Sequence record: MW822011
Reading direction: 5' to 3' (one strand)
Length of the DNA: 64,000 bases
DNA from: Shigella phage TB004
Part shown: piece after piece, positions 2,132 to 62,048 of the stretch
Layout of the letters: each line of letters opens with the position of its first letter
Position numbering within the stretch: the first letter of the stretch is position 1
The notes under the pieces: model-generated
The model's database searches: none
Told to the model about the DNA's origin: nothing
What the model saw: only the letters and a program-made list of their open reading frames with translations
Translations under genes and position numbers: made by a program

Positions 2132-2160
2132 GTTTACTTTCCTTCCTAACAATGATATGA
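2132..2160 (+). promoter_or_regulatory. T4-type early promoter (aaaaagtTGTTTAC ... TATGAT)
   Basis: A-rich UP region, -35 GTTTAC, -10 about 17 bp downstream; precedes modB. Confidence 0.5.
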
Positions 2161-2187
2161 TAGCTTCTGAAGTATACGGAGGCTATC

Positions 2188-2811
2188 ATGATTATTAATC
2201 TTGCAGATGTTGAACAATTATCTATAAAAGCTGAAAGTGTTGATTTTCAATATGATATGTATAAAAAGGTCTGTGAAAAATTTACTGACTTTGAACAGTC
2301 AGTTCTTTGGCAATGTATGGAAGCCAAAAAGAATGAAGCTCTTCATCGGCAGTTGAATAAAATCATTAAAAAGCATTTAACTGAATCACCTTATCAGCTA
2401 TATCGTGGTATATCAAAATCGACAAAAGAACTCATTAAAGATTTACAAGTCGGAGAAGTGTTTTCAACAAACAGAGTAGATTCATTTACTACTAGTTTGC
2501 ATACAGCGTGTTCTTTTTCTTATGCTGAATATTTCACTGACACAATACTTCGCTTAAAAACTGATAAAGCTTTTAATTACTCTGACCATATCAGCGATAT
2601 TATACTTTCTTCTCCTAATACTGAGTTTAAGTATACATATGAAGATACTGATGGATTAGATTCAGAACGTACTGATAACTTAATGATGATTGTGCGTGAA
2701 CAAGAATGGATGATTCCAATTGGAAAGTATAAAATAACTTCTATTTCAAAAGAAAAATTACACGATTCGTTTGGAACATTTAAAGTGTATGATATTGAGG
2801 TAGTTGAATGA
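2188..2811 (+). CDS. modB: ADP-ribosyltransferase ModB (207 aa)
   Basis: R-S-E ART motifs (YRG ... FTTS ... REQEWMIP); length and position match T4 modB. Confidence 0.8.
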   Translation: MIINLADVEQLSIKAESVDFQYDMYKKVCEKFTDFEQSVLWQCMEAKKNEALHRQLNKIIKKHLTESPYQLYRGISKSTKELIKDLQVGEVFSTNRVDSFTTSLHTACSFSYAEYFTDTILRLKTDKAFNYSDHISDIILSSPNTEFKYTYEDTDGLDSERTDNLMMIVREQEWMIPIGKYKITSISKEKLHDSFGTFKVYDIEVVE

Positions 2812-7093: not shown

Positions 7094-7123
7094 GTTTACT
7101 TCCTCGGTTAGTTGTGGTATTAT
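7094..7123 (+). promoter_or_regulatory. T4-type early promoter
   Basis: aaaaagttgtttac ... tggtattat. Confidence 0.45.
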
Positions 7124-7150
7124 AACACCATAGCTACTGAGGATAATAAA

Positions 7151-7651
7151 ATGAAAATTTATCGTGTTGAATCATCTTTTAGTATTCTTAATTATGAAGA
7201 TGCTATAACAATACGTCGAAATCTTTGTGTTCAAATAACGCCGTACAGGAGTATAATAGATTCATGGAGCGAAGAGTGGCTATTACACGTAGGTTATGAT
7301 AGACCTAATTTTATGCATCATAGCGATAATAATAAAAGAATTCCTTTACCACACGAAGATAAACTATTAGTTAAAAACGCTAATATAGTAATTAATACTA
7401 AGTTCAAGAAAGATTATGTTGGAGTAGAATATCATATTCCAGGATGGTTTATAGCTCTTTATCATTTTGCTTTCGCTAGTGAGTATGATATGATGAGATG
7501 GTTCACGCGAGAAGAGCGGGAAGAATTATCTTCTAAAGGATTTTATCTCGCTGTATACGAAGTTCCTGAAGATGAAGTTATCATTGGTGGGCACCAAGTA
7601 ATGTTCCGCAAATCGCATGCTGAACTCGTAGATTTTATTGAAATGAGATAA
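7151..7651 (+). CDS. hypothetical early protein (166 aa)
   Basis: ORF track frame 7112..7651; ATG at 7151 after gagga. Confidence 0.5.
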   Translation: MKIYRVESSFSILNYEDAITIRRNLCVQITPYRSIIDSWSEEWLLHVGYDRPNFMHHSDNNKRIPLPHEDKLLVKNANIVINTKFKKDYVGVEYHIPGWFIALYHFAFASEYDMMRWFTREEREELSSKGFYLAVYEVPEDEVIIGGHQVMFRKSHAELVDFIEMR

Positions 7652-9768: not shown

Positions 9769-10029
9769 ATGAAATATATTAATCGTTCTATCGCAGCATT
9801 AGTATTAGCAGTGTCTTTAGCAGGATGTACTGATGCTGATAATGCAACCAAAGTTTTGTCTTCAAGTGGTTTTACTAATATTGAAATCACTGGATATAAT
9901 TGGTTCGGTTGCTCTGAAAATGATTTCCAGCATACTGGATTTCGTGCTATTGGACCTACCGGGCAGAAAGTAGAAGGAACAGTATGTTCTGGTCTATTCT
10001 TCAAGGATTCGACTATCCGTTTTAAATAA
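9769..10029 (+). CDS. putative lipoprotein (86 aa)
   Basis: signal peptide with lipobox LAGC (MKYINRSIAALVLAVSLAGCTD). Confidence 0.55.
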   Translation: MKYINRSIAALVLAVSLAGCTDADNATKVLSSSGFTNIEITGYNWFGCSENDFQHTGFRAIGPTGQKVEGTVCSGLFFKDSTIRFK

Positions 10030-16196: not shown

Positions 16197-16250
16197 GTTT
16201 ACATACCACAAGGACTGTGGTACTATACAACTATCAGCTACGGAGGAGTA
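16197..16250 (+). promoter_or_regulatory. early promoter plus conserved leader (member of the dispersed repeat family)
   Basis: gtttac ... ctgtggtactatacaactatcagctacggagg. Confidence 0.5.
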
Positions 16251-16253
16251 AAA

Positions 16254-16517
16254 ATGAAATTTAAATTTTATTACGCTAAACATAAAATTACCGGTGAATT
16301 TATTGCATTTACGACTTCAACTACAGATGAAGGAGATATTTTTACTGCAGTATTTTTATCAAAATGGGAATCAGATCAACCTTACTTATCATCACGTGAA
16401 GATCTCCAACGATTAGTTAATGGAGAATATAATGATTCATGGTCATATTTAGTCCATGATTGTGTTAAAAAGGCAATAAAACAAAAACACTTGGAAATTG
16501 CTGAGATTGAACTATGA
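16254..16517 (+). CDS. hypothetical protein (87 aa)
   Basis: ORF track frame; ATG at 16254 after ggagg. Confidence 0.5.
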   Translation: MKFKFYYAKHKITGEFIAFTTSTTDEGDIFTAVFLSKWESDQPYLSSREDLQRLVNGEYNDSWSYLVHDCVKKAIKQKHLEIAEIEL

Positions 16518-16702: not shown

Positions 16703-16756
16703 GTTTACAAGACTGTTCCTCTGTGGTACTATACAACTATCAACTACGGAGGAACA
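16703..16756 (+). promoter_or_regulatory. early promoter plus conserved leader (member of the dispersed repeat family)
   Basis: aaaaagttgtttac ... ctgtggtactatacaactatcaactacggagg. Confidence 0.5.
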
Positions 16757-16759
16757 GAA

Positions 16760-16873
16760 ATGAAAAAGATTGTTAAAGCTATATGGAATGTAGTTATAAT
16801 ACTAGTAGTTTTGAGTATATTCACAATCGTTTTAATGATTGATGTATTAAACGCTTACTTTGGATTTATGTGA
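16760..16873 (+). CDS. small membrane peptide (37 aa)
   Basis: MKKIVKAIWNVVIILVVLSIFTIVLMIDVLNAYFGFM; ATG after ggagg. Confidence 0.4.
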   Translation: MKKIVKAIWNVVIILVVLSIFTIVLMIDVLNAYFGFM

Positions 16874-19733: not shown

Positions 19734-19764
19734 CCAAAGCATACTGTGGTACTATACAACTATC
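19734..19764 (+). repeat. 31-bp promoter/leader repeat upstream of motA, identical to 36776-36806 inside gene 32
   Basis: ccaaagcatactgtggtactatacaactatc. Confidence 0.7.
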
Positions 19765-19796
19765 AACTACTGATACAGAATTACGGAGATTAGAAA

Positions 19797-29653: not shown

Positions 29654-32600
29654 TTATTCAATCCATTCAAATTTAACAGATTTATTCACTGGGTCAGGAA
29701 TAATGCGAACATTACCAATTCGTAAGAAATCACGAATAGTAAGATTCCCCATTGTAGCATTATCAGATGGTAAAGCACCGATATCAGATGGTTGAGGAGG
29801 GTTACCTCCGTCAAATACCTGAACAAAACTTGACCAAGAGTTTTTGGTTTTCTGCCATGTACGTGTCCAGCGAGTGGTACGTGCTTCTGGAGTCGTTGGA
29901 TAAGTAATCCAATCTTGGTAAAGCGAATCAAGTGTGTTACCAAACTGAGTCAATGTACCAGGAGATTTAACTTCTTCGCCACGTTCTAAGTATGGAAGTC
30001 CAGTCACTTCATTAGTTTTTTCAACCATTTTAAAATAACCTGGGAACTGGTTATAAGTAGCTGAATCATTAATATCGATTGACCAGAATCCTACAGTATC
30101 AGATGTTGGCGCACGGGTATATAAGTCAGATGTTTTAGTGCCCTGAGAACGAATTCTCGAGTTAACAGTTAAACCACCTGAATTTATAGTAGCACCTTTG
30201 GCAATGATTAAGCTTTCACCAATCGTTACTTGACCGGACTGATTGTTAATAGCTAAAGGACGTAATCCATTAAATCCGCCAGTCTGATCACCTGATGTAG
30301 TAAGCATAAAATAGACATTAGCACCATCATTACGAATAAAGAATCCGTAATTACCACTAATAGCTCTAAAAGCATTCGATGATTTGCTGATGAATTCACC
30401 ATTAGCAGTAACTGAACGACCGAATGTTGCAACGCCATTAACATTCATCAAACCGGAAGCATTAATGTTTATTGGCATTACAGTACCATTAATGCTAAAC
30501 GCTATATTCCCGTCTTCTTTATTACGTTGAGAATAAAAGTGATAAGATGTATCATCACCAACTTCAAACACTGTCGAACGGGTCGTATCACTACCGCCGC
30601 CAAATTGGTTACCCCATACACGGATGCTCATTGACTGAACCGGGTTTGCACCGGATGCAGGACCTTTTTCGAAAACGATACGGGTCGGAGTTCCAGTATT
30701 AGAAATAGTTAATGTACTATTTGCCGAAACTGAACCACCAAACGTAGCAGTACTAGATGATACAAGAGGGGCACTCAGATTCGTTTGTTGGGTTAAGGTT
30801 AGTGAACCATTAACCGTCTGTGCAATGTCCCTACGAATGAACTGGGATGAATCTAGACCATCCAATAAATTTGTATCAGCAGCTTTTGCTTTTAATGGCA
30901 AATAATTTGCTAATACACGGTTTAATTCATATGGTGATACTGCATAACTATTTTTTTCGTATAATTCTAATGACTGGGTTGAACCAACGGTATCATTACC
31001 GACGAATGTAATTGAACCAGATGAAGTTTTAACAAATCCTCTTATCGCAGTAGTAGCTGCCCAAGTAGGTTCACTCTGCACAATCCATTTTAAATTTTTT
31101 GGAGATACAGCAGTATTTGCTGACGTTCCAGTTACAGTTTCAGACTGAGTTGCAACTTTAATAACACCTTCCTGTGCTTCAGTAGATTTAGTACCTAAAA
31201 GCTTTTTAGGAGTTATTAAAACATTATCTAATGTTCCTGCAGCAGCTTCAACTTGCGTAGCTACACGAAGTGTACCACGCTGTTTCTCATTTGCTTCAAG
31301 AATATTAAGGGTATAATGGTCCCAGAGAGTTCCTGATTCAACTAATCCAGATAGAGCAACAACAGAAGTACGATCAGTACTATTAAATCTAGTTTTAATT
31401 TTTAATGGTGTAGAGATACGAGTATCGTCGACGCCTGCGTCGAATTCAACTTGTGTAGCAATTTCAGCTATACCACTTAAACTTTCAGTTGCTCTACGGT
31501 CATTTAAAGTTTTAGGAGTGACTGCACGAGTATAATCAGTTCCTGTATTAACTTCACTTTGCGTAGCAATTTCAATTAAACCAATTCTTCCATCAGTTGA
31601 TGTCTTTTTATGTAACGTTTCTGGCGTTACAACAGCATTTGCCCATCCTTCTTGACTTTTTCCAGCAATTACTTCACTTTCAACTGCTAAAATTACTGCA
31701 CCTTGTTGTGTTGGAGTAGCTTTATACTGATCCAGAGCTTTAGGTGAAACAACTAAATTATTAGTGTTTTTATTATAAACGTTTGTACCATTTAATTCAC
31801 GACTAGAAGCTGGAGTAGCTCCTGCAGTAGATACAAATGTTACAATACCAGATAATGATTCAGAACCTTGTCGAGCTTGAAGCTTTTTAGGAGTGATGAT
31901 TGTAGTATCATCAGTACCTGCATTAGTTTCCTGTTGCGTAGCAATTTCAGCAACACCTCTACGAGTTTCTGTAGCAGTTCTTTCATTCAGCTTTTTAGGA
32001 GTGATGATAATATCATCAGCAAAAGAGAATGTGGTGTTCTGATTCACTTGAGCAGTAGTTGCTATTCTTGCGATACCTCTACGAGTTTCTGTAGCAGTAC
32101 GGTTAGCTAATGTTTCTGGAGTAATTGCTAATTCTTTTTGTGGAGAATTTTCTAAATCGACATTAGCTTGAGCTTGTGTAGCTAAAGCAATTACACCTAA
32201 TCTTGCTCTAGTAGAATCATTTAAAGAATCAACTCTTTCTACGGTTGGAACGTTTTGCTGTACAACCCAATATTTTCCATCAGAATCTTCTATGTAAGCA
32301 AGCTCCAAAACTGGAACATAATTAGTTTCACCGTTAAAAACTAATTCTTGAACAGTCACCCATTTAGTTTCAGGCGGATACTCTGAACGTTTTGGGAATT
32401 GCAGCAATTGAACTGAAGAAGCAATTTTATCTTCACCGGCAGCTTTGATTTTAACTGTTTGTCCTTTTCTCATGTAATTCATGGAAATTTTAACAGTATC
32501 ACCAACAGAAATATTAGTTGGAAGCTTAAGCTCAATTGTCTGAGCTGTTCCGTTATTCGCACCAAATACCATAACTTCTTCATTTGGACGAATATTAGAA

Positions 32601-35891: not shown

Positions 35892-36827
35892 ATGTTTAAA
35901 CGTAAATCTACTGCTGAACTCGCTGCACAAATGGCTAAACTGGCTGGAAATAAAGGTGGTTTTTCTTCTGAAGATAAAGGCGAGTGGAAACTGAAACTCG
36001 ACAATGCGGGTAACGGTCAAGCAGTAATTCGTTTTCTTCCGTCTAAAAATGATGAACAAGCACCATTCGCAATTCTTGTAAATCACGGTTTCAAGAAAAA
36101 TGGTAAATGGTATATTGAAACGTGTTCATCTACCCACGGTGATTACGATTCTTGCCCAGTATGTCAGTACATCAGTAAAAATGATTTGTATAACACTGAC
36201 AATAAAGAGTACGGTCTTGTTAAACGTAAAACTTCTTACTGGGCTAACATTCTTGTAGTAAAAGACCCAGCTGCTCCAGAAAATGAAGGTAAAGTATTTA
36301 AATACCGTTTCGGTAAGAAAATCTGGGATAAAATCAATGCAATGATTGCAGTTGATGTTGAAATGGGTGAAACTCCGGTTGATGTAACTTGTCCGTGGGA
36401 AGGTGCTAACTTTGTACTGAAAGTTAAACAAGTTTCTGGTTTTAGTAACTACGACGAATCTAAATTCCTGAATCAATCTGCGATTCCAAACATTGATGAT
36501 GAATCTTTCCAGAAAGAACTGTTTGAACAGATGGTTGACCTTTCTGAAATGACTTCTAAAGATAAATTCAAATCGTTTGAAGAATTGAGCACTAAGTTCA
36601 GTCAAGTTATGGGAACTGCTGCTATGGGTGGTGCCGCAGCGACAGCCGCTAAGAAAGCTGATAAAGTTGCTGATGATTTGGATGCATTTAATGTTGATGA
36701 CTTCAAAACAAAAACTGAAGATGATTTTATGAGCTCAAGCTCTGGCAGTTCATCTAGTGCTGATGACACGGACCACCAAAGCATACTGTGGTACTATACA
36801 ACTATCGGCAATACTGCTGATGATTAA
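35892..36827 (+). CDS. 32: ssDNA-binding protein gp32 (311 aa), variant C-terminus
   Basis: [52 protein letters not shown]; OB-fold core conserved; last 17 aa diverge from T4. Confidence 0.9.
36776..36806 (+). repeat. 31-bp promoter/leader repeat inside the 3' end of gene 32 (identical to 19734-19764)
   Basis: ccaaagcatactgtggtactatacaactatc. Confidence 0.7.
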
Positions 36828-36840
36828 AGAGGAAAATAAT

Positions 36841-37493: not shown

Positions 37494-37530
37494 TTTACAG
37501 AAGGGTAGTAGTGTGATACTATTACCCTAT
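37494..37530 (+). promoter_or_regulatory. early promoter with overlapping imperfect palindrome
   Basis: gtttac ... aGGGTAgTAGtgtgatactattaccct. Confidence 0.45.
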
Positions 37531-37547
37531 AAACTAAGGAGAATAAA

Positions 37548-37790
37548 ATGAGATTACAACGTCAGAGCATTAAAGATTCAGAAGTTAGAGGTAAATGGTA
37601 TTTTAATATCATCGGTAAAGACGCTGAACTTGTTGAAAAAGCTGAACGTCTTTTGCGTGATATGGGATGGGAAGATGAATGCGATGGATGCCCTCTTTAT
37701 GAAGATGGAGAAAGCGCAGGATTCTGGATTTACCATTCTGATGTTGATCAGTTTAAAGCTGATTGGAAAACTGTGAAAAAGTCTGTTTGA
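37548..37790 (+). CDS. hypothetical protein (80 aa)
   Basis: ORF track. Confidence 0.5.
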   Translation: MRLQRQSIKDSEVRGKWYFNIIGKDAELVEKAERLLRDMGWEDECDGCPLYEDGESAGFWIYHSDVDQFKADWKTVKKSV

Positions 37791-45819: not shown

Positions 45820-47408
<1,589 letters not shown>

Positions 47409-47411
47409 GCT

Positions 47412-47465
47412 GTTTACAAGTCCCTCGTGTTGTGTTATAGTAATCTTACTGACATAACATGAGGA
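47412..47465 (+). promoter_or_regulatory. 54-bp early promoter / imperfect palindrome cassette upstream of alc (copy A)
   Basis: gtttacaagtccctcgtgttgtgttatagtaatcttactgacataacatgagga; near-identical to 61671-61724. Confidence 0.6.
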
Positions 47466-47472
47466 CTTTATG

Positions 47473-47976
47473 ATGGATTTACAGCTTATTACTACTGAAA
47501 TGGTCGTTGAAGCATACGGTGATACTACAGATGGGATTTCTGTATTTAAAGGAAATCGTCGAGTTGGATATATCACCGATCTTAAGAAAGATTTAGCTAA
47601 GCAAGTCAAGCGGAAAACGACCATTAAAGAATATCGAAATCGTCGTCTTGAGCAAGCCCGTGATATGCTTCCTGATGCAGTTGAGGAGATGAAAGTCTTT
47701 TTAGAAAATCAGCTTGCGAAATATGATTGTGATGTGTTCATTAATCAGACTCAACCTAATGTTCATATTAACAACTGTAAATGCTATATCATCGTTAATC
47801 CTTTGACGGGAAAACATCGTCTTGGAATTAGTAATCCAAATCGTAGCGCATCAGATATGGCAGAAGATGTTGAGGCATGCTTTAAAATTTCTAAATCTCC
47901 GGCTGAACATCATATTTTAATTAACGGTCTTTCTCAAGACGATATTGTAGAGGTTATTAAAACTTTATGCAATTAA
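47473..47976 (+). CDS. alc: Alc, host transcription unfolding/termination factor (167 aa)
   Basis: MDLQLITTEMVVEAYGDTTDGISVFKGNRRVGYIT; length and position between rnlA and pseT. Confidence 0.85.
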   Translation: MDLQLITTEMVVEAYGDTTDGISVFKGNRRVGYITDLKKDLAKQVKRKTTIKEYRNRRLEQARDMLPDAVEEMKVFLENQLAKYDCDVFINQTQPNVHINNCKCYIIVNPLTGKHRLGISNPNRSASDMAEDVEACFKISKSPAEHHILINGLSQDDIVEVIKTLCN

Positions 47977-54426: not shown

Positions 54427-54460
54427 TGTTTACAGTATAGTTCATTTGTGATAGTATTAT
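54427..54460 (+). promoter_or_regulatory. T4-type early promoter
   Basis: taaagttgtttac ... tgtgatagtattat. Confidence 0.45.
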
Positions 54461-59018: not shown

Positions 59019-59203
59019 AAGCTTACTTAGAAACAATTGTCGTGGCTCAAAAAGAAGGTGGAGATGTTTCTACTTCTGTATCACAAATCGTTCTTGAATT
59101 TGTAGATGCATATGCTTATAATAAATTCACAGAAACATTTGATGCCTATGAAAAAGGTCCAAAGTTTGAAATATATCGTACTCTCTTACCATTAGATTAT
59201 TAA
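59015..59203 (+). CDS. hypothetical protein (62 aa)
   Basis: ORF track; ATGA overlap with ligase. Confidence 0.45.
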   Translation: MKAYLETIVVAQKEGGDVSTSVSQIVLEFVDAYAYNKFTETFDAYEKGPKFEIYRTLLPLDY

Positions 59204-59222
59204 AGGCCTTCGGGCCTTTAAT
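59202..59222 (+). terminator. rho-independent terminator
   Basis: aaaggccttcgggcctttaatttt. Confidence 0.6.
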
Positions 59223-59224
59223 TT

Positions 59225-59232
59225 TATAAATA
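59225..59232 (+). promoter_or_regulatory. late promoter TATAAATA upstream of alt
   Basis: ttttataaatagaat about 30 nt upstream of alt ATG. Confidence 0.5.
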
Positions 59233-61313: not shown

Positions 61314-61699
61314 ATGGAACTTATTACAGAATTATTTGACGGCGCTTCGGCGCCGGTTGTTAACTTAAATCCTAAGCATAAAATACCACAAATTTTTGCT
61401 ATTCAAGCCGGCGAAGAAAGCGTGCTTCCTGGATTTAGATTTTGTACATACACCTCTGGCGGTGATACGAATAAAACGTTAAGCCGGGCGATAAAATGAT
61501 GCATATCGTAATGATAGGTGTTAATGAGAAACTATCATTAGTTAAGCTTAAAAACTTGGGTGGAAATCCAATTGGTGTCATTAATGCTGTTTTTGATACT
61601 GCTCTTCAAACAATGAAACAGTATAAAATCGACGCATGCCTATTACGCGTACTAAAAAGTTCAAAATGTAGTTTACAAGTCCCTCGTGTTGTGTTATAG
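61314..61699 (+). pseudogene. frameshifted tandem duplicate of the alt 5' region (Alt N-terminal fragment in two ORFs)
   Basis: MELITELFDGASAPVVNLNPKHKIPQIF ... FCTYTSGGDTN then frameshift, then MMHIV ... TALQTMKQYKIDACLLRVLKS; parallels Alt residues 1-120. Confidence 0.6.
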
Positions 61700-61724
61700 T
61701 AGTCTTACTGACATAACATGAGGA
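61671..61724 (+). promoter_or_regulatory. 54-bp early promoter / imperfect palindrome cassette (copy B)
   Basis: gtttacaagtccctcgtgttgtgttatagtagtcttactgacataacatgagga; one mismatch versus 47412-47465. Confidence 0.6.
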
Positions 61725-61731
61725 ACACAAA

Positions 61732-62022
61732 ATGAAATCTTCTTTACGCTTTTTAGGTCAAGAACTTGTAGTTGAAGGCGTTATTCCTGCTGATAACGCT
61801 TTTAATGAAGCGGTTTACGACGAATTTATCAAAATTTTTGGAACAGATAAAAAGTTCGGAATTTTTCCTTCTGAAAATTTTTCAAAGCCAGAACAGACTG
61901 AAAGCATTTTCCAAGGTGTAGTAACAGGTAAATTTGAGTCAGAAGCTCCGGTAAAAATTGAAGTTTATATTGAAGACAATTTAGTTGCTTCAGTTGCTGC
62001 TTTTATTTCATTCCGTAAATAA
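61732..62022 (+). CDS. hypothetical protein (96 aa)
   Basis: ORF track; SD within the cassette (gagga). Confidence 0.5.
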   Translation: MKSSLRFLGQELVVEGVIPADNAFNEAVYDEFIKIFGTDKKFGIFPSENFSKPEQTESIFQGVVTGKFESEAPVKIEVYIEDNLVASVAAFISFRK

Positions 62023-62026
62023 AAAT

Positions 62027-62048
62027 ATGGGGACCGAAAGGTCCCCAT
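62027..62048. terminator. bidirectional hairpin terminator between convergent genes
   Basis: atggggaccgaaaggtccccat. Confidence 0.55.

Follow-up and report, generated by a model that had tools for sequence, protein, structure and literature searches.

Paired early-promoter cassettes upstream of alc and alt.-3 in T4-like phages, and their predicted masking of the Shine-Dalgarno sequence in read-through RNA

The genes alc and alt.-3 of Shigella phage TB004 are each preceded by a copy of one 54-bp sequence in which an early promoter, a leader and a Shine-Dalgarno sequence (SD) are combined. Our analysis of 64,000 nucleotides of this phage's DNA (record MW822011; hereafter, the window) suggests that the SD of both copies would be masked in RNA reading through from upstream and free in transcripts begun at the cassette's own promoter, and that the pair originated by conversion from the alc to the alt.-3 locus. 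We put the probability of this reading, taken as a whole, at roughly 60%.

Results

A pattern search for the 54-mer GTTTACAAGTCCCTCGTGTTGTGTTATAGTA(A/G)TCTTACTGACATAACATGAGGA returned exactly two + strand matches in the window, with 0 mismatches at copy 1 and 1 at copy 2 (Table 1), and none in dinucleotide shuffles. The copies are identical at 53 of 54 positions, the sole difference being A versus G at cassette position 32, and repeat finding recovered the same 54-bp pair independently (98% identity; family D8). The near-identical pair with one mismatch that a previous, sequence-only reading of this DNA had reported is therefore genuine and not expected by chance. The identity also goes beyond what the early-promoter consensus would impose, because the 19 + strand sites that fit TTTACN-17-TAnnnT have a mean 54-mer identity of 43% (sd 10%) when lined up on their -35 hexamers, and the runner-up pair among them reaches 76% against the 98% of the cassette pair.

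We number the cassette 1-54, with the -35 hexamer at positions 2-7, the TG at 22-23, the -10 hexamer at 25-30 and the SD, GAGGA, at 50-54. On the 5' side, where rnlA ends at one copy and alt.-2 at the other, identity stops abruptly; 3' of GAGGA the copies diverge immediately, into cttt-ATG before alc and acacaaa-ATG before alt.-3. Identity thus covers promoter, leader and SD and nothing else, from the -35 hexamer through GAGGA. Copy 1 fills the gap between rnlA and alc, with the rnlA stop codon (TAA) 3 nt to its 5' side. Copy 2 overlaps the final 29 nt of the alt.-2 ORF, and the alt.-3 ATG follows 7 nt downstream of its SD; its earlier placement "downstream of the alt duplicate" holds but lacks precision, as the copy constitutes the promoter and leader of alt.-3.

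Table 1. Positions of the two cassettes and of neighboring features in the window, whose + strand is the minus strand of T4.
Feature	Position	Strand	Remarks
Cassette copy 1 (alc promoter, leader, SD)	47412..47465	+	Pattern search and repeat finding
Cassette copy 2 (alt.-3 promoter, leader, SD)	61671..61724	+	Pattern search and repeat finding
Copy 1 promoter	47413..47441	+	TTTACA 47413-47418, 17-nt spacer, TG 47433-47434, TATAGT 47436-47441
Copy 2 promoter	61672..61700	+	TTTACA, 17-nt spacer, TG, TATAGT 61695-61700
Predicted +1 (A at cassette position 37)	47448 (copy 1), 61707 (copy 2)	+	Predicted
Copy 1 hairpin (cassette positions 7-57)	47418..47468	+	RNA folding; includes SD 47461-47465
Copy 2 hairpin (cassette positions 9-56)	61679..61726	+	RNA folding; includes SD 61720-61724
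rnlA (gene 63) ORF	46203..47408	+	Listed from TTG; annotated T4 gene is shorter
alc, inhibitor of host transcription	47470..47976	+	T4-annotated start is the second ATG, 47473
Late-promoter motif TATAAATA	59225..59232	+	27 nt 5' of the alt ATG
alt.-1 and alt.-2, remnants of a second alt gene	61314..61699	+	Transcripts crossing them enter copy 2
alt.-3 (DUF5498 protein)	61732..62022	+	Driven by copy 2 (putative)
Terminator-like GC hairpin between alt.-3 and convergent gene 54	62027..62048	+	Terminator scan; end of unit

The window derives from a Tequatrovirus (T4-like) genome with ~98% identity to many T4-type phages. T4 itself carries both copies at the same two loci, with one difference between them at another position than in the window. 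A blastn search with the 54-mer, covering 50,697 phage records, matched 997 places in 499 records, with two copies in each complete Tequatrovirus genome and one in a partial genome; it returned no match outside Tequatrovirus and no third locus. This search of other T-even genomes, which the sequence-only reading had proposed, thus found both loci constant throughout the 499 Tequatrovirus records. In the papers searched we found no earlier description of the 54-mer; the classical T4 promoter compilations, or the published list of PeSL cassettes in PST, may already note the pair.

Both copies scored 10 of 12 consensus matches plus the TG extension in a promoter scan, which supports their assignment as strong sigma-70-type early promoters. 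They match the type described for T4 early promoters, with its UP/-35/TGn/-10 layout (PMC2988021). The scan, together with the position of GAGGA, upholds the view that each copy contains an early promoter and the SD of the downstream gene. The +1 was placed at the usual 7-nt distance past the -10 hexamer. In T4 omics data, alc and alt.-3 are early as both RNA and protein, alt is late, and alt.-1/alt.-2 appear as middle RNA with the protein undetected (PMC9697503); the early class of alc and alt.-3 fits an active early promoter directly before each gene. We found no mapped start sites, translation data or structure-probing data for the two cassettes in the papers searched.

The late-promoter motif TATAAATA is absent from both copies, and the one before alt is a likely source of late read-through transcripts running towards copy 2. 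As the terminator scan found no terminator between the cassettes and their upstream genes, and as TATAAATA precedes alt, late alt transcripts should enter copy 2. We also observed that this motif directly follows a terminator-like hairpin (AAAGGCCTTCGGGCCTTT; hairpin and motif together, window 59199-59232), and that GC hairpins resembling it occur at 10026, 15536, 15302 and 55250 (repeat families D7 and D13).

In read-through RNA, RNAfold predicts a hairpin of -23.8 kcal/mol (z -7.0) for copy 1 and of -23.0 kcal/mol (z -6.4) for copy 2; for each, 0 of 200 shuffles were equally stable. The alc copy pairs from 7-57 to 12-52, bulges C13, pairs again from 14-51 to 25-40, bulges A26/U27, and in the upper stem pairs from 28-39 to 31-36 around a loop at 32-35. 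The 5' arm consists of the promoter spacer and the -10 hexamer, and the 3' arm carries the SD, which pairs fully with the C-rich GUCCCUC of the promoter spacer (pairing probability ~1). The palindrome noticed previously is thus real, but it is only the top of a longer imperfect hairpin reaching from cassette position 7 to 57. Because three of the 22 pairs are G·U, the antisense RNA folds less well, at -14.3 (copy 1) and -17.2 kcal/mol (copy 2), or 6-9.5 kcal/mol worse than the sense RNA. The hairpin is therefore specific to sense RNA, which argues against a symmetric DNA operator. Rfam covariance models gave no match at either locus with E up to 1.

By contrast, leaders begun at the cassette's own promoter (starts at positions 35-38) are predicted to be unstructured (-3.2 and -3.6 kcal/mol, z ~0), so that the comparison of read-through with promoter-initiated RNA, previously suggested as a check, sets a stable SD-burying hairpin against no significant structure. 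The predicted cost of opening the stretch from SD to AUG is 10.6-12.6 kcal/mol in read-through RNA versus 1.9-3.3 kcal/mol in own transcripts. When only the upstream part was shuffled, the read-through opening cost was reached in 5 of 200 and 4 of 200 cases (~0.02 per copy), a moderately significant result.

These results suggest the following mechanism. The DNA from the -35 hexamer to the SD would also encode both arms of a ~50-nt RNA hairpin, with the predicted +1 (position 37) as the first base of the 3' arm; since the predicted +1 begins this arm, RNA from the cassette's own promoter would be without the 5' arm and would keep its SD free. RNA arriving from upstream (from rnlA and earlier genes in the case of alc, and from late alt transcription in the case of alt.-3) would contain both arms, fold, and bury the SD. 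Both genes would then be translated mainly off their own early-promoter transcripts, which would confine their translation to the early period and insulate it from upstream transcription. Purifying selection on promoter and hairpin would keep the copies alike, possibly with occasional further conversion. Ribosomes finishing rnlA, 3 nt before the cassette, or alt.-2, inside it, could melt the 5' arm and so reduce masking in vivo.

Natural substitutions within Tequatrovirus spare or repair the hairpin. We compared both copies from 21 genomes, that is, 42 copies representing 19 haplotypes and 13 variant types, and all 19 haplotypes retain the hairpin (-19.6 to -29.9 kcal/mol). Variants in the loop or bulges (positions 27, 32, 33 and 34) are neutral for the fold; G16>A and G40>A convert G·U to A-U; and C15>U turns the C15-G50 pair into a U·G wobble, which in one genome has become U-A through G50>A. 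The alt.-3 register contains a single mismatch, C11 opposite A54, mended twice independently, by C11>U (five genomes) and by A54>G (one genome), suggesting that the cassette has been tuned to its new alt.-3 context. The stem is weakened only by G29>A, a change that also turns the -10 hexamer into a perfect TATAAT, and by G40>U. Formal covariation within Tequatrovirus was not significant (77 of 500 shuffles reached the observed score) because little varies within the genus; the test used in its place showed that observed substitutions are much less destabilizing than random single substitutions (P = 0.0066 for alc; P = 0.0013 for alt.-3). In the covariation counts, 95-99% of cells are paired, compared with 26-56% in slid registers.

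The comparative data are drawn mostly from INPHARED records, as IMG/VR scans with the two proteins gave only 11 (Alc) and five (Alt.-3) loci. S16-like phages (STML-198 and a relative), Karamvirus (CC31 and KaAlpha) and Moonvirus (Moon) have a colinear alc cassette of the form GTTTACA-TCTCCATTTGGTTGTGT-TACTAT-loop-ACACTAACCAAATGGAGA. In these phages the 5' arm lies in the spacer, with the -10 hexamer and the predicted +1 in the loop, and the stem shows one compensatory change from A-U to G-C and another pair that occurs as three standard types. In Gaprivervirus (VR25 and VR20), the anti-SD, GGUUCC, is instead located between the -10 hexamer and the predicted +1. The alc cassettes of all these other genera, Gaprivervirus included, have their -35 at position 1, their -10 at 25-30 and their SD from position 50. 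The anti-SD is 5' of the predicted +1 in every genus compared, and its sequence differs from that of Tequatrovirus. The predicted cost of opening the ribosome-binding site in the other genera is 5.7-16.3 kcal/mol in read-through RNA versus 1.1-1.6 kcal/mol in own transcripts. The alc SD is thus masked, in these predicted folds, by three sequence-unrelated solutions across five genera, and this recurrence of one layout at one gene is the strongest argument for selection on masking. The sequence-only reading had raised the possibility that the palindrome sequesters the SD in read-through transcripts; folding, the substitution pattern and four other genera all support this prediction.

Two further observations concern alc in these relatives. 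Gaprivervirus genomes of the VR7/VR25 type carry a cassette upstream of alc (loci L008, L009 and L012, ~1430-1500) that contains a GGGG-loop-CCCC hairpin, whose loop holds the -35, and 3' of it a distinct hairpin for the SD; with 3-5 matches per genome it forms a multi-copy, PeSL-like family (PeSL cassettes are discussed later), unlike the two-copy Tequatrovirus case. In phage Shinka (L032, 15396-16029), alc is annotated as two CDS of 120 nt and 456 nt, which points to a frameshift, stop codon or sequencing error in the alc of that phage.

We asked how the alt.-3 locus came to share this sequence. The alt.-3 orthologues of Gaprivervirus VR20 and Mosigvirus moha are preceded by a colinear promoter cassette equal in length (L040, 205-255; L041, 190-250), with the same ends (GTTTACAA...ACATGAGGAA), an unrelated interior and an unmasked SD. 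Because the ends are shared and the interior is unrelated, the position of the alt.-3 promoter is older than the Tequatrovirus repeat, and because these orthologues carry a colinear promoter, both loci already possessed promoters before Tequatrovirus emerged. With two promoters in place, conversion accounts for the repeat better than a mobile unit inserting itself: in the Tequatrovirus ancestor, a single ectopic conversion probably replaced the interior of the alt.-3 cassette with that of the alc copy, alc to alt.-3 being the direction that we infer. The idea of a mobile regulatory cassette, put forward in the sequence-only reading, survives in the weak sense of such a past conversion; with no third locus in 499 records, and with blastn matches confined to Tequatrovirus and two fixed loci, active mobility finds no support.

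Gene conversion between the copies may possibly be continuing. Across the 21 genomes there is no fixed difference between the loci, five of the 13 variants are common to both, and paralogous copies differ at ~2 positions, orthologous ones at 1.5-2.6. Copies within a genome are marginally more alike than copies from different genomes (permutation P 0.04-0.06), and the variants shared by both copies of one genome (A12 in ZCEC14, A33 in ELT1, and A16 in GBLB0003 and teqhal) are each compatible with chance; given the marginal permutation result and these chance-compatible overlaps, we regard continuing conversion as suggested only.

Relative to RB10-type phages with two full-length alt genes, the T4/window lineage is missing ~1.69 kb of the second alt gene. 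At the deletion junction (window 61652-61660 versus L021 14292-15981) the flanking alignments overlap by 9 nt, suggesting a deletion by microhomology. The endpoint lies 19 nt 5' of copy 2, and the A/T-rich region upstream of the promoter is intact; the cassette as the endpoint of the alt-duplicate deletion is thus ruled out.

We also scanned promoter/SD cassettes across the window, and 4-5 of the 12 show predicted SD masking, those of modB and dexA.1 among them. In the modB cassette (window 2133-2200) and the dexA.1 cassette (7095-7165), the anti-SD lies 5' of the predicted start, and the predicted opening cost is 16.0 versus 2.3 kcal/mol and 14.2 versus 2.9 kcal/mol, respectively, in read-through and own transcripts (0 of 200 shuffles in each case). 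Their layout is that of the alc and alt.-3 cassettes, with a larger difference in SD accessibility; their sequences, however, are unrelated, at the ~43% identity that is the ordinary level among promoters. The promoter at 54429 is a weaker case of an early-promoter cassette with a masked SD.

Repeat finding revealed further families in the window. One is a second set of related early-promoter cassettes, a six-member -10/leader/SD repeat (CTGTGGTACTATACAACTATCA...; family D1) with up to 91% identity over 45 nt, located at 16215-16259, 16721-16765, 19744-19788, 36786-36830, 37511-37555 and 46245-46289, in which small stem-loops round the -10 leave the SD unmasked. Another (D2) comprises four copies of a 68-nt direct repeat within 31149-32125, 65-72% identical and 120-483 nt apart, and is probably a coding motif repeated within a structural gene.

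Discussion

The cassette pair adds a new case to phage designs that are already known; it does not establish a novel kind of element. One such design is the PeSL cassette, defined as a stop codon, an A/T-rich stretch, an early promoter, a stem-loop that may lie over the -10, an SD and an ATG; PeSL cassettes repeat within a genome and adjoin indels, and the authors who described them take the stem-loop to terminate transcription and the cassettes to serve as linkers in recombination (Arbiol et al. 2010, PMC2839356; Comeau et al. 2014, PMC4122927). The likeness is considerable. Both copies have a sigma-70-like early promoter that resembles the PST/T4 consensus (TTTACW, 17 nt, TAYWAT; PMC2839356; PMC4122927), a stable stem-loop over the spacer and -10, a stop codon in A/T-rich sequence just before the -35, and a 3' end made up of SD and start codon, with GAGGA 4 nt from the alc ATG and 7 nt from that of alt.-3. 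Where a phage has two full alt genes, the TAG that stops the second ends on cassette position 1. The pair differs from PeSL cassettes, however, in that (i) it consists of just two copies, which are separated by 14 kb, flank essential genes at loci fixed in 499 genomes and show no sign of shuffling or mini-circles, (ii) the stem is rich in A-U and G·U pairs instead of being of the GGGG...CCCC type, and one copy is without a terminator tail, and (iii) the 3' arm is the SD itself, a feature that the PeSL papers leave uninterpreted (PMC2839356; PMC4122927).

The other design is that of the T4 genes e, soc, 49 and I-TevI, for which a review describes long transcripts that fold the SD and/or AUG into a helix, and an internal promoter that yields a shorter, translatable RNA without the 5' strand (PMC3014915). 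The alc and alt.-3 cassettes share with these genes the predicted SD helix of upstream-initiated RNA and a predicted +1 inside the hairpin. The promoters of those genes, though, are late (TATAAATA) and delay translation, whereas the cassette promoter is of the early sigma-70 type and the predicted effect is the reverse, namely early-only translation with middle and late read-through RNA blocked. Neither alc nor alt.-3 is on that review's list of SD-masking hairpins (PMC3014915).

Several other explanations of the hairpin deserve consideration. If it served as a terminator or attenuator that isolates transcription units, SD masking would be incidental. The PeSL authors attribute such a function to their stem-loops, which can sit between the -35 and -10 or over the -10, and one GC-rich PeSL stem-loop equalled rrnB T1 in termination when assayed with lacZ (PMC2839356); the cassette hairpin is likewise stable, and in the alc copy UUUAU follows it. 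Yet neither copy is among the 12 sites that the terminator scan found in the window, the A-U/G·U-rich stem is bulged, and the alt.-3 tail (ACACAAAA; that of alc is CUUUAUGA) is without a U tract. Neither copy shows the G+C-rich stem and direct U tract of an intrinsic terminator. The tail, moreover, falls outside the conserved 54 bp, whereas SD pairing is the feature conserved in every genus, and we consider a terminator role unlikely. It is about equally improbable, in our estimation, that a plain promoter was duplicated and that the hairpin is a by-product of promoter sequence preferences with no function at the RNA level, the similarity of the copies reflecting recent duplication and general constraint. 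Many early promoters in the window do have small inverted repeats round the -10 with the SD unmasked (16198, 37494, 11917 and 50737), and within-genus covariation is not significant, as such a by-product would have it. What this explanation leaves unaccounted for is the bias of substitutions towards changes that are neutral for the hairpin or repair it, the mending, twice, of an alt.-3-specific mismatch outside the promoter hexamers, the three unrelated solutions for masking the alc SD in five genera, and the strand asymmetry of the fold.

The sequence-only reading had also offered the palindrome as a possible operator for a dimeric DNA-binding protein; a phage or host protein of this kind would control the promoter. 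An inverted repeat over the -10 and +1 does occupy the classical operator position, and two identical sites could be co-regulated. Against this, the symmetry of the DNA is poor (G·T oppositions at three of 22 pairs, two bulges, and a bottom-strand DNA fold of only -6.1 to -6.2 kcal/mol), natural changes follow RNA pairing (G·U to A-U) instead of half-site identity, and in other genera the layout persists although the arm sequences are unrelated and the pairing register is shifted. A review of T4 transcription ascribes the early-to-middle switch to ADP-ribosylation by Alt/Mod and to AsiA/MotA, and an operator-type repressor of early promoters is unmentioned in it (PMC2988021). Given the imperfect symmetry, the G·U pairs, the strand asymmetry and the unconserved arms, we think an operator very improbable. 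The hairpin might instead act in RNA processing or stability, for example as an RNase III-type site or by stabilizing the 3' ends of the rnlA and alt messages: the stem, ~22 bp long and bulged internally, is of a size known from substrates of double-strand RNases, and it stands exactly at gene boundaries. A mere stabilizer, however, would not need the conserved pairing of anti-SD with SD or its conserved place relative to the +1. In the passages considered here, a review of T4 mRNA decay deals with RegB, RNase G and RNase LS and places none of these at hairpins of this type (PMC3014915), and we give a processing role little credence, slightly less than a terminator.

Masking of the SD in read-through RNA, our preferred reading, has several implications. 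If it works as predicted, alc and alt.-3 would stay early as proteins behind the later-transcribed rnlA and alt, without the need for a terminator, and the T4 device of a promoter inside an SD hairpin would be extended from late to early promoters. For PeSL stem-loops, translational insulation would suggest itself as a second role. The pair would also be a natural example of one regulatory cassette overwriting another via ectopic conversion and then being tuned to its context. For annotation and phage engineering, the 54-bp unit may represent a compact, portable early expression cassette, and the direct repeat is a potential recombination substrate when the region is edited.

More broadly, SD masking by early promoters could be a general "translational insulator" of T4-like phages, in which a sizeable share of early genes would be translated solely off their own promoter's transcripts and a successful cassette could be copied onto another promoter by ectopic conversion, as from alc to alt.-3; we hold this wider reading to be possible, although we lean somewhat against it. 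It would cover alc, alt.-3, modB and dexA.1, perhaps also the gene after the promoter at 54429, and the design is kept at alc in at least five genera through three unrelated solutions. If it is true, the PeSL stem-loops would need to be reread as translational, and not only transcriptional, insulators, and part of the switch from early to middle and late protein synthesis would be hard-wired in the promoters themselves.
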